A stretch of 64,000 nt of DNA, taken from Candidatus Bathyarchaeia archaeon. Lineage in GTDB: Archaea > Thermoproteota > Bathyarchaeia > Bathyarchaeales > Bathycorpusculaceae. The stretch covers positions 143,688 through 207,687 of the forward strand of contig JBEKXL010000003.1 of NCBI GenBank assembly GCA_049512075.1, given 5' to 3'. The position numbers and the translations under genes were made by a program. Within the stretch, counting starts at the first letter, position 1, and the number at the start of each line of letters is the position of its first letter. This document shows, one piece after another, positions 2,296 through 54,778 of this stretch. The notes beneath the pieces are model-generated. The model was not told where the DNA came from and made no database searches. It saw only the letters and a program-made list of their open reading frames with translations.

Positions 2296-3084
2296 GTGTT
2301 GTTTGCGTTAGAGACGTTGATTCTTAGCTTATCGATAGGGGTTGCAGTGGGTGTTTCAGGCGGCTATCTGGGCTCTCTCATGGTATTGAAAAAAATGGCG
2401 CTTGTTGGCGACGCATTTTCGCATGTAGCGTTGCCTGGGCTTGCGCTGGGGCTTCTGTTCCATTTCCCCGTTTTCCTCGGGGCATTCGCTGTCCTCTTTG
2501 TCTCCGCCGTCGTCGTTTGGCAGTTGGGAAGGGTTACTAAGTTATCTTACGAATCTATAGTTGGAGCAACGTTCACGCTGGCGTTGGCAATAGGAATATT
2601 GATGGTGGTAAACGGTCAGCTTGATCTACTGGAGGCTCTCTTTGGCGACATAACAAACGTGACTCTGTTTGACGCAACAACAGCGGTAGCAATTTCCATT
2701 GTGGCTATTCTTCTCACGAAGATGATTTACAAGAAACTCGTCTTGGGAATGATTTCGGAAGAACTGGCAATCTCAAAAGGCATTAGCGTCTCTAAGACAG
2801 ATCTTTTGTATCTTCTGCTGGTCTCCCTCGTAGTGGCAACGGGCATAAAAATTGTTGGAAGCCTATTAGTCGGTTTCTTGGTCGCGGTTCCTGCAGCATC
2901 CGCGAAAAACATAAGTTCTAACCTACTCAAATACTCAGTCATGAGTTCAGCATTTGGGGCCATCAGTGCGTCCTCGGGGGTCTTGCTGTCAAACTATCTG
3001 AACCTGCAATCAGGCCCCATGGTGGTTATTTCTGGAATCACGATTTTCGCGGTAACAGTAGCGCTTAGATGGAAGGCAAAGTAG
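2296..3084 (+). CDS. Zn/Mn ABC transporter permease (ZnuB/ABC-3)
   Basis: ALVGDAFSHVALPG ABC-3 signature, LFGDI, multiple TM helices. Confidence 0.92.
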   Translation: MLFALETLILSLSIGVAVGVSGGYLGSLMVLKKMALVGDAFSHVALPGLALGLLFHFPVFLGAFAVLFVSAVVVWQLGRVTKLSYESIVGATFTLALAIGILMVVNGQLDLLEALFGDITNVTLFDATTAVAISIVAILLTKMIYKKLVLGMISEELAISKGISVSKTDLLYLLLVSLVVATGIKIVGSLLVGFLVAVPAASAKNISSNLLKYSVMSSAFGAISASSGVLLSNYLNLQSGPMVVISGITIFAVTVALRWKAK

Positions 3085-3181
3085 GCGCGCGTGAAGCTTG
3101 TGTCATGAAACCACGTCAGAGAATAATCAAAATACGAGTTCAAAGCGAGTTCCTCTAACGCGCGCGACACTGACCTAGAAC

Positions 3182-4612
3182 CTATGTGATGCTGCGGATG
3201 TTTTCCAGGACACTGCCTAGACGGGAGACGTTCTTTATCGCGGTTCTGACGCGGTAGGGACTTTTAATCAGTCTAGCCATTTGCTTTGAAACAAAAGTTG
3301 GCCGTCGGGCAAAGTGGTAGAAGCCATCATGAATCATCCACCTTATTTCGCTGTAAGGCACTGCGGTGGGATATATCTCCGAAACTGCGATTCCTGTCTC
3401 CCAGTATTCGCCTCCTTTCAGAAGCCCCTTGGCTTCGCATTCGTCCCAGATATCAGTTCCAGGATAAACCCCCAGAATATTGAACTGCGGTACATCTATC
3501 GGAATTCTGTTTGCAAACTCTATCGTGTTTCGGATTTCTTCTCTGGTCTCATTAGGCGCCCCGACGATGAAAGATCCGACTATTATGTCAGCTCCCGCTT
3601 TTCTCGCTGTTCTTACAGCAGTTCTAGATTGTTCAGGCGTTATCCGTTTGTTGTAGTAGTCCAGAATTCTTTGATTGGCGCTTTCGATGCCGAAATAGAG
3701 GACCTTGCAGCCTGCTTTGGCAGTTTCCCAGAACATTTCATAAGAGCCATTGTCGACTCTTCCTTCGCATATCCACTCCATGTCCAGCTTTTCCCTTCTC
3801 ATCTCTCTACAAAGCCTGATGACGTTCTTCGGGTTACCCGTGAAATTGTCATCCACAAAGATGAACTGCTTGTACCCCTCCGAAGCAAGAAAACGCAGTT
3901 CTTCCATAGTATTCTCGACGGATCTGGGTCTCCACCTGTTGTGAGCAAACTGTGTGCAACAACAGAATCGACATCTGTAGACGCAGCCGCGCGAAGAAAC
4001 AACGCTGGTGAACTTTCTCGGAGCTATGTTGGCTCCTGCCATTACTGAGTGGTAGTCTTCGCCGACCAGTGAACGATCTGGAAAAGGAAGGCCGTCCAAA
4101 TCCTTTATCAAAGGACTGTCAGCCGTGGAGGCCACTCCGCCCTCGTTCCTGAAGCTGATTCCGAGAACATCCTTCAACCTTCCCTTGTTCTTGAGACAAT
4201 CCACCAGGTCGACGACTGTTCGTTCTCCTTCTCCACGCACGATGATGTCGACTAAAGGATACTTTCTCAGAACCCTTTCGGGATTGAATGTGGCGTAGTA
4301 GTTTCCGAAAACCACGGTAAGGTTCGGATTTTCCTTTTTGACCTCAGCGCTTATCATCGCGGCGGTACGGCCGGAGGTTGCGAACGTTGAAAAACCAAGA
4401 ATGTCAGGGTTCTCGGCCTTCACCCATTTCGCCGTCTCTTTCACTGTGAGGCCTTTCGCTGCCTGATCGAGCACGGAGACCTCAACACCGTTTTGCTCCA
4501 GCACTGCAGCCAGATACAGGATTCCAAGAGGAGGCCAGGCGCCAAGGGATTTTTTCCTCTCGCGATCATCCAGATCTACGTTCGGACCAGCATTGACGAA
4601 AGAGAACTTCAT
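3182..4612 (-). CDS. B12-binding radical SAM protein
   Basis: PPLGILYLAA, GEGE, SRGCVYRCRFC (CxxxCxxC), FVDDNF, FGIES. Confidence 0.92.
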   Translation of the reverse strand: MKFSFVNAGPNVDLDDRERKKSLGAWPPLGILYLAAVLEQNGVEVSVLDQAAKGLTVKETAKWVKAENPDILGFSTFATSGRTAAMISAEVKKENPNLTVVFGNYYATFNPERVLRKYPLVDIIVRGEGERTVVDLVDCLKNKGRLKDVLGISFRNEGGVASTADSPLIKDLDGLPFPDRSLVGEDYHSVMAGANIAPRKFTSVVSSRGCVYRCRFCCCTQFAHNRWRPRSVENTMEELRFLASEGYKQFIFVDDNFTGNPKNVIRLCREMRREKLDMEWICEGRVDNGSYEMFWETAKAGCKVLYFGIESANQRILDYYNKRITPEQSRTAVRTARKAGADIIVGSFIVGAPNETREEIRNTIEFANRIPIDVPQFNILGVYPGTDIWDECEAKGLLKGGEYWETGIAVSEIYPTAVPYSEIRWMIHDGFYHFARRPTFVSKQMARLIKSPYRVRTAIKNVSRLGSVLENIRSIT

Positions 4613-8842: not shown

Positions 8843-8960
8843 TTGTAATGTCAGATGTAATGTGTACTGTTACAAACCATGGAGAAAATCAGGCTGGACT
8901 ACTGTTCAGAGTGGACTCGGCCCTTTTATTTGTAATGTCAGATGTAATTTTCAATGTAAT
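8843..8960 (+). repeat. Duplicated TTGTAATGTCAGATGTAAT with TGTAAT hexamers at 12-bp period
   Basis: 19-mer at 8843 and 8930; TGTAAT at 8844, 8856, (TGTTAC 8868), 8931, 8943, 8955. Confidence 0.85.
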
Positions 8961-9182
8961 AGACAGGGACGGTAGTGTTGCCCGCGGTACAAAGCCAGAA
9001 CGGTTAGGTCTGGCAGGCTTACTTCGCCGTTGCCGTCTATGTCGCGCGCGCTGGTCATTAAACAGAAAAATAGCGTTTGAGGCGTGTGCTCTATGCTTTG
9101 CCGATTGCCTCCTTTGTGCAAGGTTTATTACTTCAATCACGAGTAACCAATAAGCCGTTGGCGATCTGAAGGAAGGCTGCAT

Positions 9183-10475
9183 ATGCGTACGTACGTTCAC
9201 CGTCTGCCCGGCATCGTTTTAACTGGCCATGAATTCAATGTGCCCTTTGATCACAGGCAGCCCGATGGCGAGATGATAAGCATCTTTGGACGCGAAGTGG
9301 TTGCGAGTGACAAGGAAAAGAGCGATTTGCCGTGGCTTGTCTTCTTTCAAGGTGGTCCCGGTATGGAAGCGCCGCGTCCTGAAAACAGCAGTGGCTGGCT
9401 GAAAAGAGCACTGCAAGAGTATCGTGTGTTTCTGCTTGATCAACGCGGGACAGGCCGCAGCACGCCCGTCAACTATCAGACGTTGGCGCGGTTCGCCACT
9501 GCTAGAGAGCAGGCTGAATACCTGAAGAATTTTCGCGCTGATTCAATCGTGCGAGACGCTGAATTGATTCGACGCGAATTGCTCGGAGAGGGTGGCCGCT
9601 GGAGTGTGCTGGGGCAGAGCTACGGGGGCTTCTGCGTGACGCATTATCTGTCCGTCGCGCCAGATGGACTGAAGGAGGCGATTATGACTGGTGGATTACC
9701 GCCGTTGAATCGGCCGCCCGACGACGTTTATCGCGCCACTTATCAGCGCGTCATTGACAAGAACAGACTTTACTACGAACGTTACCCCGATGACATCGGA
9801 CGTGTGAGAGAAATCGTCGACTATCTAGAGTCGCATGAGGTGAACTTGCCAGGTGGCGATAGACTGTCACCGAGACGGTTTCAGCAACTCGGCATAGCGT
9901 TCGGGATGAACAACGGTTTCGAACAAGTTCACTACCTGCTCGAAAAAGCGTTCCTTCGCGACGCAGCTAATCTGCAGATAAGCTATGCTTTCCTGCGCGG
10001 CTTCGAAAACTCCCTCTCGTTTGAAACCAACCCAATCTACGCGATTCTGCACGAATCACTCTACTGCGAGGAAACCGCCTCCAACTGGTCAGCTGATCGC
10101 GTCCGACAAGAGTGCCCAGAATTTGAGATCACACGTGATCAACCTGTGTACTTCACGGGCGAGATGGTGTATCCATGGATGTTTGACGAGTACAAGTACC
10201 TGCGACCATTGAAAGAGGCGGCGGAGATTTTGGCGACGTACGACGGCTGGCCGAAGCTGTACGATAAATCGGTCTTGCAATCGAACACAGTTCCGTGCGC
10301 AGCCGCCATTTACTACAACGACATGTACGTCGAGCGAACGCTCTCAGAGGAAACCGCAAAGAACATTCGCGGCATCAAGCTATGGGTCACCAGTGAATAC
10401 TATCACAATGGCCTGCGCGCCGATGGTGAAAAAGTGCTGGGCCGCTTACTGGGCATGCTCCATGGAGAAAACTGA
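9183..10475 (+). CDS. Prolyl aminopeptidase (alpha/beta hydrolase)
   Basis: FQGGPG, LDQRGTGRS, GQSYGG nucleophile elbow, YYNDMYV, HNGLR. Confidence 0.92.
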   Translation: MRTYVHRLPGIVLTGHEFNVPFDHRQPDGEMISIFGREVVASDKEKSDLPWLVFFQGGPGMEAPRPENSSGWLKRALQEYRVFLLDQRGTGRSTPVNYQTLARFATAREQAEYLKNFRADSIVRDAELIRRELLGEGGRWSVLGQSYGGFCVTHYLSVAPDGLKEAIMTGGLPPLNRPPDDVYRATYQRVIDKNRLYYERYPDDIGRVREIVDYLESHEVNLPGGDRLSPRRFQQLGIAFGMNNGFEQVHYLLEKAFLRDAANLQISYAFLRGFENSLSFETNPIYAILHESLYCEETASNWSADRVRQECPEFEITRDQPVYFTGEMVYPWMFDEYKYLRPLKEAAEILATYDGWPKLYDKSVLQSNTVPCAAAIYYNDMYVERTLSEETAKNIRGIKLWVTSEYYHNGLRADGEKVLGRLLGMLHGEN

Positions 10476-19086: not shown

Positions 19087-19225
19087 GTATTATTCCTTTC
19101 TTTTCCACTCATGCGCACTGGTTCAAATAAATCTACTGAAAGACTGAAAGCAAATGCAACAAGCGCGCGTTAGGTTGACGTTTAAATATGACTTGAAGGA
19201 TAAGAGATGACGGTGAACATTCGAA

Positions 19226-19507
19226 ATGGTTGGGCCTGCATTGTCTCTGCCTGCAAAGTGGGAACAGTTTCTGAAACATTTGGCCGACGATCACGAGATT
19301 GATATCAACGCCGTCGTCAGTGAACTGTGCGAATGGGCCTTATCCGATGATGAAGACAAAGAACAGTTCAAAGCTTGGCTAGATGAGGCTTATCCGCCAG
19401 AAGGAGAAGCTGAAGAAGGAGCAAGAGCCGCAGGAGAAGAAGCCGCCGAGGAAGAAGAAGAGAACGCAGAAGCATCTGAAGAGGAATCCCACGAACACCG
19501 AGACTAA
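19226..19507 (+). CDS. Small acidic hypothetical protein
   Basis: TTTAAA TATA-like box and GGTGA RBS upstream; Glu-rich tail. Confidence 0.55.
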   Translation: MVGPALSLPAKWEQFLKHLADDHEIDINAVVSELCEWALSDDEDKEQFKAWLDEAYPPEGEAEEGARAAGEEAAEEEEENAEASEEESHEHRD

Positions 19508-19650
19508 TCACAAAGCCACGCTAGGCTCATAATGCCCGCCAGATAACTCGCGCATTACATTCGCATTGAGAAGCTACCAAAAACTGGCCATTTCGAACCT
19601 GTTTTTCTAAACACTCTGCAACTTTTGCTTATTTCTTCGAAAGGAAGCTC

Positions 19651-19806
19651 GGTGGGGCCGGCCGGATTTGAACCGACGACCTTTCCCCGGGGCAGTGTTC
19701 TTAACGCTGTCCCTACGGGTTTCTCTGACCGCTCCAGAACCTCTTCATCCCTTTTGAGGTCCGCAAACCTGTTGCTACATTCTGGAGCCCGTCGTCATAC
19801 CTGTCT
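19651..19806 (-). pseudogene. 5'-truncated, divergent tRNA-Trp(CCA) copy with C/D-type intron and an additional ~32-nt insertion near position 43/44
   Basis: 29 bp identical to the intact tRNA-Trp (19775-19803 vs 21667-21695); T arm GTCGG-TTCAAAT-CCGGC; acceptor 3' strand CGGCCCC-ACC; first ~13 nt missing. Confidence 0.85.
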
Positions 19807-20276
19807 GTATCCTTACTAATGAGTTATTGTTTCTTTCTTCTCCTTTTTGGGTTTTTTGGTTTTCTTTTTGGGGGGCTAAATTTTGCTTTTCGTCTTCGTT
19901 GTCGGATTCCATATTTATCACTCAAGGGACATTCCTTTTTTCGTAGTTGACGCGACGAGGAGACAATATGCCTTTTCATGACATTTTAATGACACTCCGA
20001 ATGGAGATGAAGGGAGAAATTTATGTTTCTGAGGATTTGGTCTTTTTATGTTGACGAAGAAACAATAAATTTCTAGCTTGGGGGCGACCTTCATCGGAAT
20101 GAGGAGAAAGGCTTATGTCTCCGAGGAGATTTTTGCGTGAGCTTGATTGAGCAATTTTCTTAGTCTCTTGGGTGAGGTACACTGGGGGAGATATAAGAAA
20201 ATTGCGAAGTTCATTGGGGTGGGTTTTAACCATTTGCATTTGTTGGTACTGGTGCGTTAAGGGACACGATACCTTC

Positions 20277-21002
20277 TTAATACACAGGAGCGTCATCTAA
20301 GTCTGACCTGATTGGAATTTTGCTAATACCCTGTTTCTTCATCACCGATTCCACTGTATCTCTAAACCATTCTTGAGCAGTAGGCGACACATACACATTC
20401 TCGATTAACATGTCCAAGTTAACGTCAATGTATTCGCCTCTGTCAAATATGTCTGGGGCAGTGGGAAAATAAGCGTTAGGAAGCTTGATGATTATGGCTC
20501 TTAGTTCCTGCTCATTTTCATAATTTCTTCGCTTATGCCAAAATGGGTTGGTAACCCACTCTTCGGGAAAAGTCTCTGTGTTGTAGTCTATGTACTTGAT
20601 TTTGCTAATAAGAACATAATCATTTGCGCTTGAACTGAAGGACTGTGTTAATCGCTTGAATGTTGATTGTACTGCTATGCCCTCTGCTTCTTTAATATAT
20701 AGTTTCCAGAGTGGCGCAGAATCCTGTTCACTTAAGTTCCAGCAATTAATGATAACGAATCGTCTGAAATGTTCCAATGTCATCCCCTCAGGAAAAGGTT
20801 TGTACGTTTCAAGTCGCAGCTTGACATTTGCCTTTGAGGTCGAACCTTCAAAAGGATCGCCTAGTTTATCAGATCTACAGAAAAAAAGCGCTTTCTTGTC
20901 AAGTAGTGATACAAACTTTGCGAAGCCCATATATCGCCATATTTTTGCATTCTCATTCGTAGGTTTTTGGCATGTGGATTCGTCCGTGTACTTCGCCTGC
21001 AA
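20277..21002 (-). CDS. DUF2971-like protein in a tRNA-flanked islet
   Basis: IWRYM.F.KF.SLL...LFF...DPFEG, INCW...DSAPLWKLY, HKRRNYENEQELR; AT-rich. Confidence 0.7.
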   Translation of the reverse strand: MQAKYTDESTCQKPTNENAKIWRYMGFAKFVSLLDKKALFFCRSDKLGDPFEGSTSKANVKLRLETYKPFPEGMTLEHFRRFVIINCWNLSEQDSAPLWKLYIKEAEGIAVQSTFKRLTQSFSSSANDYVLISKIKYIDYNTETFPEEWVTNPFWHKRRNYENEQELRAIIIKLPNAYFPTAPDIFDRGEYIDVNLDMLIENVYVSPTAQEWFRDTVESVMKKQGISKIPIRSDLDDAPVY

Positions 21003-21063
21003 TTTTTAGGATTCCACCTCTCGGAAACTCAGGGTAGTTTTTGCGGCGGCTTCGATTTTTGAC

Positions 21064-21225
21064 GCGCGCTAGCGTGTTCCTAAATTCCCTTTTTTGGGCG
21101 TGACGAGTTGGTCCATGTCCTACAGACGATACTTCTCGCATCAATAGTCACACGGTCATCCTCGAACCAAGCGAGCCTGTAACAAAAACCAGCTCGCGAA
21201 TGAATTTAGGAACAGGCATGCGCGC
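21064..21225. mobile_element. MITE-like element, copy A
   Basis: Perfect 13-bp inverted repeat TGTTCCTAAATTC (21075-21087 / 21202-21214), each 5 bp inside a GCGCGC; homologous to 61250-61406. Confidence 0.7.
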
Positions 21226-21536
21226 TAGCTTGCCGAAGCCTTCCTTTTGGTAAATTGTTTTGGTGGGTTAATAGCATTTTCCAATGCCTCTTTCAGCAAT
21301 TTTTCAAAGTCTTTTAGATCTTGATCTGTAGACCCAGAAGTATCTGCACCATTACCAGCTTTGCTAGATTTGTCTTCTTGTTTACCTGATTCTTCGCCTT
21401 CACCTTTTTCTCCTAGTTCTTCTTTCCCCTCTTTCCCTTCTTCTTCTGACTCTGATTCTGTTTCTTCACCAGATTCCTCTTCTGACTCGTCGTCAGTTTC
21501 TTCTCCTTCATCTCCATCGCCTCCTTCATCTTCAGC
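21225..21536 (-). pseudogene. Start-less fragment of a highly acidic protein
   Basis: Open frame AEDEGGDGDEGEETDDESEEE...DFEKLLKEALENAINPPKQFTKRKASAS*; no start codon; GC runs at both ends. Confidence 0.65.
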
Positions 21537-21569
21537 GCGCGCGCATGCTCAGATTTATTGGAATTGTTT

Positions 21570-21711
21570 TGGTGGGGTCGCGCGGATTTGAACCGCGGAC
21601 CTACGGGTTTCTCCGTGACAGCTCCAGAACTTCGTCATTCCAGCGTTCTGGTCAGCAAACCCGTTTCTACATTCTGGAGCCCGTCGTCATACCTGCCTAG
21701 ACTACGACCCC
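21570..21711 (-). tRNA. tRNA-Trp(CCA) with 65-nt BHB intron at 37/38 (21609-21673)
   Basis: Acceptor GGGGTCG/CGACCCC plus ACCA; anticodon arm ACGGG-CTCCAG|A-CCCGT; T arm CGCGG-TTCAAAT-CCGCG; BHB CTCC/GGAG with AGA and AAA bulges. Confidence 0.97.
21609..21673 (-). ncRNA. Intron-encoded box C/D guide RNA of tRNA-Trp
   Basis: Guide AACGGGTTT followed by G and D' box CTGA (N+5 gives C39); C' ATGACGA; second guide TTCTGGAG complementary to the anticodon loop. Confidence 0.85.
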
Positions 21712-21844
21712 CGAGAATTCCTTAAGAGACTTTGGATATATGCGTTATTCCTTCATCGGCCAGATTGCGTAGATGAATAGCATCGGATATGGAGTTCAAA
21801 CGTGGGAAGCGATAAGCTTATGAGTACAAGACTGACGTGTATGT

Positions 21845-21972
21845 TGGGGTTTGCCGGTCATAGGGCGTGGGTCCCACCTGATCCCATACCGAACTCAGAA
21901 GTTAAACCACGTTCCGTTTCCGGTTGTAGTGTGGTCTTCGGCCATGTGAACCCGGGAAAGCTGGTAGCCCCA
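21845..21972 (+). rRNA. rrf: 5S rRNA (stand-alone)
   Basis: CCTGATCCCATACCGAACTCAGAAGTTAA 5S signature; helix I TGGGGTTTGCCGG / CTGGTAGCCCCA; TATA-like CTTATGA ~25 nt upstream. Confidence 0.95.
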
Positions 21973-22054
21973 TTTAATCAACCTGTTGATTTGGAGGAGA
22001 ATTAGCTAAGACTTATAACTAAGCGCTGATAGTCTTTTTCCAAAAGGTGAGTCT

Positions 22055-23194
22055 GTGAACATAATCCTGGCATTGATGGGTGCTCAGACCAAGCTTGCAC
22101 AGTTTGGAGACACGAGTATAACTTGGATTTTGAACATTCTTTTCTACGTCATTTTTATCGTTTTCATATTCTATGGGCAGAGAATTCAGATGTACGTGAT
22201 GCTCAGGGAAGTTGAAGTGTCACTGTATAAGCTCAAGTTCATAAAGGAAGAAGGACGAAAAATCGCGGTGGAAACCATAAAGGAGATTGGAAAGCCGCAG
22301 GCAGACCCCACCGACAAGGTTGACAGGTTCTTGGAGTACTTCACGATAGGGCCGCAGAACCTTGACCCCGCAGGCGTAGTTTGGAAGCTTGAACACATAC
22401 TCGACGTTAGAGACACACGTTTCAAGGATGAAGTGAAGTCGATGGCGCCAGCCTCAGATGAAATTCAAGTGAACAACCTGGAAAACACCCTTGAAGCGGC
22501 CAGCGCGCTTAACTTCATCTACAAGGTTATTCGCCACTATTACCTGCTCGGCAAGAAAACCCTGAGCCTCTACGTGATAATGCAGATACAGATGATCCTG
22601 CCGCTCGTCATGCGGGAAGCAGAAGCATACGCGAGCGCTTTAAAGGCGTTTGCGTATGGTCAGCCGATAGGCGATGGGGCGGGCGCACTTGTCGCGGCAA
22701 AACTCATGCACGGATACGAAACAAGAAAAGTGGCGAAAGACTGCGTTGTCGCCACTGTTCCATATGAAGGACGCACCGCGTTCGTAATAAAAGCTGAGGG
22801 ACCAGGAGGAAACGTGGGCAAACCTGGAGACGCGATAAAGGCGGTCATTGAAGAGAACGAAGGGAAAATTGCCACAGTGATCATGATTGACGCTGCCCTG
22901 AAACTTGAAGGGGAGGAGCTGGGAGAGGTGGCTGAAGGAGTGGGCGCAGCAATCGGCGGACCGGGCGTTGACCAGTACAAGATTGAAGACTCACTGCTGA
23001 AATATCACATTTCGATAAACGCCGTGGTGATAAAAGAGGACATCGGCGACGCAGTGTCGCCTTTGCGCAAGGAAGTGTTTGATTCGACTGACAAAGTGCT
23101 TGAAAGGGTGAAACAGGTCGTGGTGGAAAAGACGAAGGAAGGAGACAAAGTGATAATCGCCGGAATCGGAAACACCATCGGCATCGGACAATAG
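22055..23194 (+). CDS. DUF1512 family protein
   Basis: QPIGDGAG, KAEGPGGNVGKPG, IDAALKLEGE, IGNTIGIGQ. Confidence 0.85.
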   Translation: MNIILALMGAQTKLAQFGDTSITWILNILFYVIFIVFIFYGQRIQMYVMLREVEVSLYKLKFIKEEGRKIAVETIKEIGKPQADPTDKVDRFLEYFTIGPQNLDPAGVVWKLEHILDVRDTRFKDEVKSMAPASDEIQVNNLENTLEAASALNFIYKVIRHYYLLGKKTLSLYVIMQIQMILPLVMREAEAYASALKAFAYGQPIGDGAGALVAAKLMHGYETRKVAKDCVVATVPYEGRTAFVIKAEGPGGNVGKPGDAIKAVIEENEGKIATVIMIDAALKLEGEELGEVAEGVGAAIGGPGVDQYKIEDSLLKYHISINAVVIKEDIGDAVSPLRKEVFDSTDKVLERVKQVVVEKTKEGDKVIIAGIGNTIGIGQ

Positions 23195-53568: not shown

Positions 53569-53891
53569 TTGGGCTGGCGAGTCGGTGTGTGGCTTTCGAG
53601 CCTCATATTGGAAGGCTTGAGGAAACTCCGCCCACGCGTAGAATTGCAACGCTCGAAAGGGCGTAAGGTGAGAACCTTGGCTACGGAGCAGAAACGAAAC
53701 GTCCGCCCGGCAAATGCCTATGACACATGCTAAGTTGTCGAGAATGCCGGGTGTGAAACGGTGAAACGGCCGTCCTGCAAGTGGAAAGGGCAAACAGACG
53801 CCGATGAAGAATCTACCTGAAGCGCGGGTAGCCCGATTAGCCGAATGCCACAAAAAACAAAAGGCGGGTTACGGCCAACACACCAGCCCAA
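53569..53891 (+). ncRNA. rnpB: RNase P RNA
   Basis: CR-I GAGGAAACTCCGCC, GCAGAAAC, TGAAACGG, CR-V ACAAAAGGCGGGTTAC; P1 TTGGGCTGG/CCAGCCCAA; TATA-like CTTATT upstream. Confidence 0.95.
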
Positions 53892-54778
53892 TTTTACTGC
53901 ACACCGCCGAAATTCTAAACGTACTAATCCAAATGAAGAACGACAACAAAAGCGACTACACCATAAAATTCACAAACAAAGCACTAACATTCTTGAGCCA
54001 ACACACCAGCTTAAACGAACCAGAAGCAGTTAAAGCACTAATAGCCAAACTGCAAACCCGAAACGGATACAAACGAAACCTCTGCATAGCCTACAACAAA
54101 TACTGCAAGCACTACCAAATAGAATGGAAAATGCCCCACTACGAACCCGAAGCCCAAAACATCAAACTACCAACCAAAGAAAGACTGAACATGCTCATAG
54201 CAAACGCAAGCCAACCACTCGCACTAAAACTAACTCTCAGCATGGAAACAGGACTCAGACCCGTGGAACTATGCAGATTAAAAGTCAAAGACGTAGACAC
54301 CGACCACAAAGTAATCAACCCGATAACAGCCAAACACGGAGCACCAAGAACCCTGAAAATATCTAACAACCTAAACGAAAGAATACAAGAACACATACTG
54401 AAAAACAACCTCACCGCAAACGACAACCTATTCAAAGGCACATCCGACGACTACGGAAAACACTACCGAGCCATGAGAAACGCACTAGCACAGAAACTCA
54501 AAGACCCAAACATACACAGCATAAGACTATACGACTTCCGACACTACTTCTGCACGACAACTCTACACAGAACCAAAGACCCATTCTACACCATGACCCA
54601 AATGGGACACAAGAAACTAACAACGACACAGAAGTACATGCATTTACTAGACCTTAATGATGATGAATGGACAGTCAAGACAGCCACCAACATCAAAGAA
54701 GCCACAGAATTCCTAGAAGCGGGATTCGAATACATTCAAGAAATAGACGGAATCAGACTATACCGAAAACGCAAATAA
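53804..54778 (+). CDS. Tyrosine recombinase/integrase whose 5' end overlaps rnpB
   Basis: ETGLRPVEL (R), TAKHG (K), YDFRH (xxR), MGHK (H), TQKY (Y). Confidence 0.9.
   Translation: MKNLPEARVARLAECHKKQKAGYGQHTSPILLHTAEILNVLIQMKNDNKSDYTIKFTNKALTFLSQHTSLNEPEAVKALIAKLQTRNGYKRNLCIAYNKYCKHYQIEWKMPHYEPEAQNIKLPTKERLNMLIANASQPLALKLTLSMETGLRPVELCRLKVKDVDTDHKVINPITAKHGAPRTLKISNNLNERIQEHILKNNLTANDNLFKGTSDDYGKHYRAMRNALAQKLKDPNIHSIRLYDFRHYFCTTTLHRTKDPFYTMTQMGHKKLTTTQKYMHLLDLNDDEWTVKTATNIKEATEFLEAGFEYIQEIDGIRLYRKRK

Follow-up and report, generated by a model that had tools for sequence, protein, structure and literature searches.

In a Candidatus Bathyarchaeia archaeon, an integrative element has most probably swapped the allele of the tRNA-Trp gene, whichever route the exchange took. 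The locus lies in a stretch of 64,000 nucleotides (nt) of contig JBEKXL010000003.1 (positions 143,688 to 207,687), which is referred to as the window; the genome of the window is G000, and coordinates are those of the window unless stated otherwise. Here, an intact tRNA-Trp gene (21711-21573) and a truncated tRNA-Trp copy (19803-19651), both on the minus strand, flank an islet of 1.77 kb. The functional gene lost an intron between nt 43 and 44 of the tRNA (43/44 intron), and the allele of its intron between nt 37 and 38 (37/38 intron) was exchanged. The allele swap is deduced from empty sites in relatives, from the identity of the foreign allele set against the relatedness of the hosts, from integrases of relatives that are fused to the core of the tRNA, and from the full layout preserved on the metagenome contig L124.

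The intact tRNA-Trp gene and its truncated copy

The intact gene was annotated as a functional hybrid tRNA-Trp(CCA) (21570-21711, minus strand). It consists of a 5' exon (21711-21674), a 37/38 intron of 65 nt (21673-21609), a 3' exon (21608-21573) and an encoded CCA end (21572-21570). The Rfam tRNA model matched 21573-21711 on the minus strand with 50 bits (gathering score 29) and with a 69-nt insertion in the anticodon loop, and ARAGORN reported tRNA-Trp(cca) with a 65-nt intron when introns were allowed; with default settings ARAGORN found zero tRNAs in the 64-kb window. The intron can be read as a canonical bulge-helix-bulge (BHB) motif, in which CUCC of nt 32-35 pairs with GGAG at the 3' end of the intron, with the bulges AG/A and AA/A. 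With the cloverleaf, the CCA anticodon and this BHB, the gene passes as an archaeal intron-containing tRNA. It is the sole tRNA-Trp gene of the genome, as judged from the ARAGORN matches listed (up to contig C54 of 86) and from blastn searches with both tRNA-Trp copies, which detected no further copy of either sequence in all 86 contigs. The divergently oriented neighbour is the 5S rRNA gene (21850-21969, plus strand, Rfam 71.9 bits). This neighbourhood is kept in the relatives G002, G005, G021 and G115, and the 5S rRNA gene anchors the host side of the locus.

The truncated copy lacks nt 1-16 of the tRNA. It comprises exon nt 17-37 (19803-19782), a 37/38 intron of 61 nt (19781-19721), the hexanucleotide ACCCGT (19720-19715), a 32-nt insertion (19714-19683) and the remaining 3' exon (19682-19653), followed by CC. 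Rfam did not find a tRNA in this partial copy and gave only a tmRNA match at 13.9 bits. The alignment of both copies contains 29 consecutive identical columns (CAGG...TGTAG), which were also found by repeat search (families D2, D5, D8 and D17) as an exact repeat on the minus strand (19775-19803 and 21667-21695). The first 13 nt of this repeat lie inside a 16-nt core (tRNA nt 14-29), which will become important below, and the rest is conserved exon and the start of the intron. Together with about 120 nt of collinear similarity, the exact repeat is far beyond chance. The insert is thus bounded by a direct tRNA repeat (19651-19803 and 21573-21695), of which one copy lies inside the intact gene.

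Besides this repeat, the copies differ in several features. The T stem is GTCGG with CCGGC in the partial copy versus CGCGG with CCGCG in the intact gene, and the 3' strand of the acceptor is CGGCCCC versus CGACCCC. The 37/38 introns (61 nt versus 65 nt) differ by many substitutions, and the 32-nt insertion, located between CCCGT and AGGTC, occurs in the partial copy only. The 29-nt core, the compensated stems, the introns and the insertion had been described in the original prediction, and all of these details were found in the sequence at the positions given.

The tRNA-Trp of archaea such as Haloferax volcanii possesses an intron that acts as a C/D-box guide. The 37/38 intron resembles it in box-like elements and in two putative guides of 8-9 nt, read by eye, one of which is complementary to the anticodon loop of the same tRNA (GCUCCAGAA) and the other to the 3' strand of its anticodon stem (AAACCCGU). 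In contrast to the intron of H. volcanii, the boxes are degenerate (AUGUAGA, CUGA or CGGA, AUGACGA), and Rfam gave no snoRNA match for the intron at E values up to 10. By this reading, the 37/38 intron is C/D-box-like and a putative guide.

G000 is a metagenome-assembled genome (86 contigs, 4.19% contamination), and variant contigs of the region of the 32-nt insertion occurred in two sequencing runs. Both points would agree with an assembly in which the tRNA-Trp alleles of two strains were joined in one contig. However, Logan contigs from four runs (four samples and studies) bridge the junctions 19806/19807 and 21572/21573 with zero differences, and the depth is even over flank, islet and gene (37.7, 39, 34 and 32.3 in X1). 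Furthermore, the same kind of junction was detected in G002, G161 and four metagenome contigs. An artefact of this kind is therefore extremely improbable. The assembly is clearly sound at this locus, and the chimeric assembly that had been raised as an objection was rejected because of the junction contigs from four runs and the even depth.

The 32-nt insertion as a second intron

The 32-nt insertion was found in 11 intact genes from ten genomes of other genera. Its putative fold is a relaxed motif of the type HBh', in which A38-C41 (ACCC) pairs with GGG followed by G or U, with the bulges GU/A and AA/A and a hairpin of 9 bp. Removal of the insertion joins U43 to A44, and the alleles of G003 and G004 that lack the insertion read exactly CCCGT/AGGTC at this position. 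In 18 distinct sequences, 88.4% of the cells of the alignment pair, compared to 29-51% with slid 3' partners. Changes on both sides occurred in six of the nine hairpin pairs, and the observed covariation score was reached by none of 500 shuffles. As the outermost helix pair (A38-G) is unpaired in 11 of the 18 sequences, the motif belongs to the relaxed type. On these sequence comparisons, the insertion is a conserved second intron at 43/44 with a predicted relaxed BHB. The fold and the splicing to CCCGT/AGGTC that had been predicted from the window are thus in agreement with the covariation and with the alleles of G003 and G004.

All 3' features of the partial copy are kept intact, including two introns that could be spliced. 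This would also agree with a 3' half of a trans-spliced tRNA-Trp, whose 5' half is encoded elsewhere, and split tRNAs exist in other archaea. However, the sequence GGGGYCGTAGTCTAG occurs at 14 places of the genome with at most two mismatches, and an acceptor strand that pairs with CGGCCCC is present only in the intact gene. For the 40 nt that precede the partial copy, no complementary sequence longer than 10 nt was detected in the genome, an intact tRNA-Trp is already present, and the same kind of partial copy is located behind the same end motif at six other loci. A split tRNA, which the original prediction had offered as its alternative, was rejected because neither a compatible 5' half nor a leader complement of more than 10 nt was found; it is hardly conceivable.

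Native and foreign parts of the locus

The region 19200-22060 was compared with 60 relatives, of which the loci were fetched and the genes read. G002, G003 and G004 belong to the same genus as G000, and G115 belongs to another genus. Among the matches listed, those that cover the partial copy almost completely came from at least 23 of the 60 relatives, with identities of 75-86%. In the final 32 nt, the copy agrees at every position (100%) with the intact genes of the congeners G003 and G004. These intact tRNA-Trp genes lie beside the 5S rRNA gene, and their first 37-41 nt are equal to those of the intact gene of the window. In G035, the intact gene is colinear with the partial copy and with 83 nt of its downstream flank, and the other side of the gene is colinear with the side of the window that carries 5S rRNA and the gene of a DUF1512 protein. 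The tRNA-Trp locus of G035 is an empty site. G003 keeps the order DUF1512, 5S rRNA, tRNA and, further on, ORF93 and EamA without the islet, and in G004 the intact gene adjoins 5S rRNA and DUF1512; the islet is absent from the empty sites of all three genomes.

From the alignment, the identity with congeners, the colinearity with G035 and the covariation of the second intron, the partial copy (19651-19803, minus strand) was identified at sequence level as the native 3' part of the tRNA-Trp gene. It was apparently displaced by 1.9 kb and left as a relic on the side of the right attachment site (attR). This reverses one claim of the original prediction, which had assigned the truncated copy to a foreign source; the copy represents the resident allele, and the 3' three-quarters of the intact gene are foreign.

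From nt 20 on, the intact gene is identical to G002_b at 118 of 123 positions, to G115_b at 117 of 120 and to G005 at 115 of 123. The identity to the native genes of the congeners is 70.5% (G004) and 75.6% (G003). Over nt 20-139, the tRNA of G002 is 98.3% identical to that of the window. The DUF1512 protein beside the locus shows identities of 98.6% (G002), 93.7% (G004), 86.9% (G003) and 77% (G115 and G005). Because the identities of the 3' part of the tRNA rank in the opposite order to those of DUF1512, the comparison shows the 3' three-quarters of the intact gene to be of foreign origin. The hybrid is composed of nt 1-16 from the host, 29 nt in common with the partial copy (21695-21667) and a remaining 3' part that belongs to a foreign allele, here called I-type. 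An essential single-copy tRNA can be partly foreign in origin. The exchange also affected the acceptor stem: in the hybrid gene, U5 pairs with A68, whereas the native pair is a U5-G68 wobble, as indicated by the identity of the 3' ends of G003 and G004 to the partial copy.

Integrases at the tRNA-Trp core of relatives

In G002 (locus L029), the 5S rRNA gene is followed by a 29-nt 5' fragment of tRNA-Trp, a tyrosine integrase of 318 amino acids (aa) and a complete tRNA-Trp of the I-type with a 29-nt insertion in the D loop. Then follow 5.4 kb of cargo, a native-type partial copy that starts at nt 14, and the host flank. The ATG of the integrase lies inside the 5' fragment; the protein matches PF00589 with 68 bits and is XerA-like in NCBIfam, below the cutoff. 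Fragment and partial copy have 16 nt in common (tRNA nt 14-29), which form the attachment (att) core. Likewise, the integrases of G115 and G142 start, as in G002, inside a 29-nt 5' tRNA-Trp fragment that is 100% identical to the sequence of the window. The junction of fragment and integrase was detected in 3 of 332 genomes of the family. These observations clearly show that relatives carry integrases acting at the core of tRNA-Trp nt 14-29. Matches to this integrase family at E values up to 1e-40 occurred in 100 of 151 genomes, and G000 itself contains 18 stretches of the family, of which 5 lie within 400 nt of a tRNA.

Partial copies that start at nt 14 behind an end motif of the AATTACT type were found in G002, G161 and four of nine metagenome matches; the partial copy of the window begins at nt 17. 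The metagenome contig L124 carries an intact tRNA-Trp without the insertion in the D loop. A promoter-like motif directly follows, then an integrase remnant (the last 25 codons, E value 9e-10), and after a further 4.3 kb a native-type partial copy. The same promoter-like motif follows the I-type gene of G303, where the contig ends 36 nt after the tRNA. For comparison, the 40 nt after the intact gene of the window were inspected for this motif, but only ACAATTC and scattered bases agree, which is too weak.

The lack of an integrase in the islet would also fit a local tandem duplication, followed by divergence or gene conversion and without any mobile element, in which case the islet would be intergenic DNA that later gained a miniature inverted-repeat transposable element (MITE) and a defence gene. 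Against this stand the identities of the intact 3' part (96-98% to alleles of another genus, 70-76% to those of congeners), the start of the partial copy within 3 nt of the start of six other partial copies, the integrases of relatives that are fused to exactly the tRNA-Trp core, and the low GC content of the islet. Such a duplication is very unlikely.

With an exact pattern, 7 of 332 genomes and 6 of 70 genera were found to carry the insertion in the D loop; the variant of G146 was missed by this pattern. In the relatives, the insertion is 29-30 nt long and is located within the 16-nt att core (AGGCAG/GTATGACGAC) of the reconstituted gene. It is combined with at least four different 3' parts, including the native type with two introns, and the loci L120 (G146) and L121 (G297) possess a tRNA-Trp with three intervening sequences, namely the insertion in the D loop and the introns at 37/38 and 43/44. 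RNAalifold detected one covarying pair in five sequences of the insertion. A relaxed BHB drawn by hand restores the D loop without insertion, but it contains one mismatch, and a change in G021 is uncompensated; a BHB is not claimed here.

Two further observations were made at locus L029 (G002:C6, coordinates of the locus). A 316-nt insert at 9235-9550 follows the displaced partial copy and is flanked by a repeat of CGGCCCCACC; its opposite strand carries what appear to be the acceptor end and the T arm of a further tRNA. It seems that L029 is a hotspot of integration and contains at least two att sites. In addition, a reading frame at the right end (8937-9302) runs in frame through the att core (…KAGMTT…), and the integrase (2411-3367) begins with MTT at the same core. 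In the circular form of the G002 element, the open reading frame (ORF) of the integrase would thus be longer by about 36 aa. These N-terminal residues would be lost upon integration, which would resemble the 'suicidal' layout in a mild form.

Proposed mechanism of the allele exchange

According to the proposed mechanism, an element with a tyrosine integrase would recombine within tRNA nt 14-29, i.e. in the D loop, the 3' strand of the D stem and the start of the anticodon stem, and the attachment site of the element (attP) would carry tRNA-Trp from about nt 14 to the 3' end. Three products would result. The first would be a working hybrid composed of host nt 1-16, the shared core and the 3' part of the element, which would bring a different C/D-box-like intron at 37/38, no intron at 43/44, a compensated T stem and A68. 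The second would be the element itself, located between the hybrid gene and the displaced part. The third would be the displaced native 3' part, which would keep both introns and would still be joined to the native downstream flank. Subsequently, the element would have decayed to 1.77 kb with loss of the integrase, so that a PDC-S31-like gene, a MITE and an ORF fragment would remain.

This exchange in one step via attP, with the integrase downstream of the tRNA part, is probably the route that was taken. It is in accordance with L124, where the intact gene has no insertion in the D loop, the integrase remnant lies directly downstream of it, and the partial copy lies 4.3 kb further on. The promoter-like motif of L124, which recurs behind the I-type gene of G303 and in front of the integrase beside the RNase P RNA gene of the window, also supports this route.

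An alternative is a route of two steps, which is a sub-route of the allele swap and does not contradict it. An element like that of G002 would first split the native gene at the 16-nt core. Then, a deletion between two GTATGACGAC repeats, catalysed by the integrase or due to microhomology, would remove the integrase, the 5' part of the tRNA of the element and the insertion in the D loop, and would fuse host nt 1-29 to the 3' part of the element. G002, a member of the same genus, possesses the required layout, the same kind of partial copy and the tRNA with 98.3% identity mentioned above. The required repeat is present in both of its copies, the missing integrase of the islet would be explained in one step, and the cargo of G000 and that of G002 are alike without an integrase of their own. 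However, the deletion would have to occur precisely on a repeat of 10 nt, and L124 and G303, in which the insertion is missing too, would each require such a deletion of their own. In L124, the integrase remnant is located downstream of the tRNA and not upstream. The parts of the layout also diverge to different degrees: between G002 and G115, the identity is 73% for the insertion in the D loop, 66% for the integrase (aa) and 97% for the 3' part, and between G002 and G142 it is 86% for the insertion and 70% for the 3' part. Moreover, the insertion occurs with at least four different 3' parts, and the host flank of G142 resumes 640 nt after the tRNA, where it is 75.6% identical to that of G012 along 1,894 nt. 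This flank and the varied 3' parts agree with an integrase module by which the 5' part alone is exchanged. The two-step route is rather unlikely. On either route, the swap would be due to site-specific recombination at this core.

Several observations weigh against the exchange by an element, or against its course in one step. No credible integrase was found in 19807-21572 (tblastn queries: the integrase of G002, and a set of 11 integrases at E values up to 50), so that the identity of the islet as an element rests on its context. The 24 nt beside the partial copy (19807-19830) match the AATTACTAAG-type motif of G002, G161 and four metagenome contigs only weakly (ATTAGTAAGG), and the cargo of the islet has nothing in common with that of the G002 element. 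The closest comparable locus, that of G002, differs in layout, as it consists of fragment, integrase, whole tRNA with insertion, cargo and partial copy. For the one-step type, no element was recovered that is complete and still has an intact integrase: L124 retains a remnant, and the contig of G303 ends. A scan of metagenomes for a free or circular attP with exact patterns gave just integrated junctions (four of nine matches were relevant), and two scans of viral contigs with exact patterns gave no free attP. Finally, the Logan contigs are short and adjoin each other at repeats, and the source sample may be among the four runs.

The claim that a tRNA borne by attP had replaced the 3' part of the host gene holds with regard to an element swap that changed the introns; its course in one step is probable, and no integrase is left in the islet. 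The exact route, as well as the time and manner of the integrase loss, are what we infer. Since the islet has no integrase and relatives carry integrases at the same core, it was filed as a decayed remnant and not as an active element.

The 1.77-kb islet

The islet (19807-21569) is regarded as the decayed cargo of the integrated element, based on its GC content, the missing integrase and its absence from the empty sites. Its GC content is 0.42, compared to 0.475 for the genome and 0.48-0.495 for the flanks. The best matches to integrases in the islet had E values of about 1e-3, were directed against the non-catalytic upstream sequence of one query and were rejected as an integrase remnant. The end of the element beside the partial copy was placed at 19807-19830 (minus strand) by motif comparison.

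A 241-aa ORF (20277-21002, minus strand) is a candidate anti-virus defence gene. It matched the PADLOC profile PDLC04993 (PDC-S31) with an E value of 2e-19 and 67.8 bits (residues 14-238 on positions 10-236 of 245). It is thus PDC-S31-like, and PDC-S31 itself is merely a candidate defence family. No match was found in Pfam or NCBIfam, for Pfam even at E values up to 10, and an assignment to DUF2971, which had come to mind, was dropped for this reason.

Upstream of it, a 164-nt repeat (21064-21227, inverted repeat I3) was detected. It is short and non-coding, has terminal inverted repeats of about 24 nt with arms that are 88% complementary, and occurs in many near-identical copies, all of which are features of a MITE. 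G000 contains six full-length copies with 97.5-100% identity (contigs C2, C3, C4, C8, C9 and C12), and copies also occur in G002, G004 and G021. At its borders, loose ends and a high depth were found in four runs.

The remaining part of the islet contains an acid-rich reading frame without start codon (21228-21548, minus strand), which was recognised by translation as a gene fragment. An exact 15-nt repeat (D16; 21253-21267 and 21562-21576) brackets 294 nt of this acid-rich fragment. The repeat consists of the last 7 nt of the tRNA including CCA and 8 nt of flank, and a second integration event, at the tRNA 3' end, may have left this trace. Inserts of about 300 nt after tRNA 3' ends in G000 and G002 were compared and are not homologous.

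At 19954-20133, contigs from the four runs skip 123 nt (from 19978 to 20102) and carry 23 other letters between, with loose ends at 19954 and about 20130. A second repeat was considered for this segment and rejected, as it is single-copy in G000; the variants are probably strain variation inside the islet.

Neighbouring genes and other tRNA loci of the genome

A 93-aa ORF with an acid-rich tail (19226-19507) lies just downstream of the displaced tRNA part. Additional copies were found elsewhere in G004, G003 and G002 (80-89% DNA identity), and this ORF may be mobile or multi-copy.

Further away in the window (region 53577-54775), the archaeal RNase P RNA gene (53577-53883) is followed, after about 50 nt, by the start of a homologue of the integrase family, and the promoter-like motif of G303 and L124 precedes this integrase. 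It may be part of an element that used the 3' end of this RNA gene as its integration site; a partial copy of the RNase P RNA was not detected elsewhere in the window by blastn.

Other tRNA genes of G000 (contigs C1 and C10, outside the window) showed similar arrangements. The tRNA-His gene is located directly after an integrase, and a 14-nt 5' fragment lies 7.4 kb upstream. The tRNA-Glu gene is preceded by a 5' fragment at a distance of 3 kb and followed by a 19-nt 3' fragment at a distance of 2 kb, and an integrase remnant is also present there. The tRNA-Gln region contains two integrases and a duplicated 5' end. G000 shows both kinds of event at other tRNAs, an element at tRNA-His and 5' as well as 3' partial copies at tRNA-Glu.

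Comparison with known systems

In pNOB8-type and SSV-type integration, as described in excerpts of two papers (PMC3293823, PMC8371274), a tyrosine integrase acts on a host attachment site (attB) in a tRNA, the gene is reconstituted, and a partial repeat remains at the far end. The loci described here are alike in these points, and the integrase either lies beside the reconstituted gene (L124) or has its coding start in the att core (G002). In contrast to these types, the repeat of the window must span an intron, so that the part of the tRNA borne by attP amounts to about 125 nt, and the crossover is located in the D arm and not in the usual 3' half. The 'suicidal' class is characterised by PF16795 in the excerpts of the review (PMC8371274), whereas the integrases found here belong to PF00589 and are XerA-like.

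Randau and Soll (2008, as cited in PMC3293823, in the part consulted) hypothesised that tRNA introns protect the genes from integration. The insertion of relatives in the att core of the D loop would be in line with this hypothesis; such an insertion is absent from the window's own gene. It may tentatively be considered, though with some doubt, that the tRNA-Trp locus of the family is a site of ongoing exchange, where tRNA introns are both brought in and removed by integrase modules and where an intron in the D loop shields the reconstituted gene. Elements that exchange the 3' part would remove the 43/44 intron and replace the C/D-box intron by another, as happened in the window. Modules that exchange the 5' part would deliver the D-loop intron into their own 16-nt att core and thereby shield the reconstituted gene, and the displaced 5' fragment, which keeps an intact core, could be a harmless landing pad. 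If this were true, the locus would provide direct natural evidence for the gain and loss of tRNA introns driven by mobile elements and for the protection from integration by introns. A preprint on tRNA introns of Asgard archaea from 2026 (10.64898/2026.10.13.758758) has, as far as its accessible part shows, tested mobile elements and other routes without finding a general route of arrival, and it leaves the question open.

The system that is most similar is the tRNA-Thr(GGU) locus of Caldiarchaeum subterraneum. Excerpts of Sugahara et al. (2012; PMC3293823) describe a 5' fragment of the tRNA, an insert of 1.8 kb that bears a recombinase, and a tRNA with an extra intron at the junction, and they propose that an attP with an intron transfers tRNA introns. 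The idea of attP as a vector of tRNA introns, on which the original prediction relies, had thus been proposed before, and in excerpts of the review (PMC8371274) it is repeated as a proposal. In our literature searches, the single Caldiarchaeum locus of 2012 was the only worked example of attP as an intron vector, and titles and abstracts contained no such case for Bathyarchaeia or tRNA-Trp.

Judged from the same excerpts, the locus of the window resembles that of Caldiarchaeum in the integration within a tRNA, in the direct repeat of a tRNA fragment, and in a reconstituted gene that carries the version of the element with altered introns. The loci of G002, G115 and G142 have a nearly identical layout, with 5' fragment, recombinase and a tRNA with an extra intron by the junction. 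The differences are that the 3' part and not the 5' part was replaced in the window, and that the working gene lost the 43/44 intron and exchanged the 37/38 intron, whereas the gene of Caldiarchaeum gained one. Furthermore, the window concerns a tRNA-Trp in a host of the Bathyarchaeia, and its integrase is gone. Compared to the three fosmid types known from Caldiarchaeum, empty, occupied, decayed and three-intron states were sampled over many genomes.

The mechanism is therefore already known from the tRNA-Thr of Caldiarchaeum, and new are the replacement of the 3' part, the loss of an intron from the working gene and the many intermediate states. The window shows, nucleotide by nucleotide, how a functional tRNA gene lost one intron and exchanged another, with the displaced native piece preserved. 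Empty sites, sites occupied by an integrase and genes with three introns are available as related states for comparison, and together with its relatives the window represents a second, independent attP-intron system with more sampled states.

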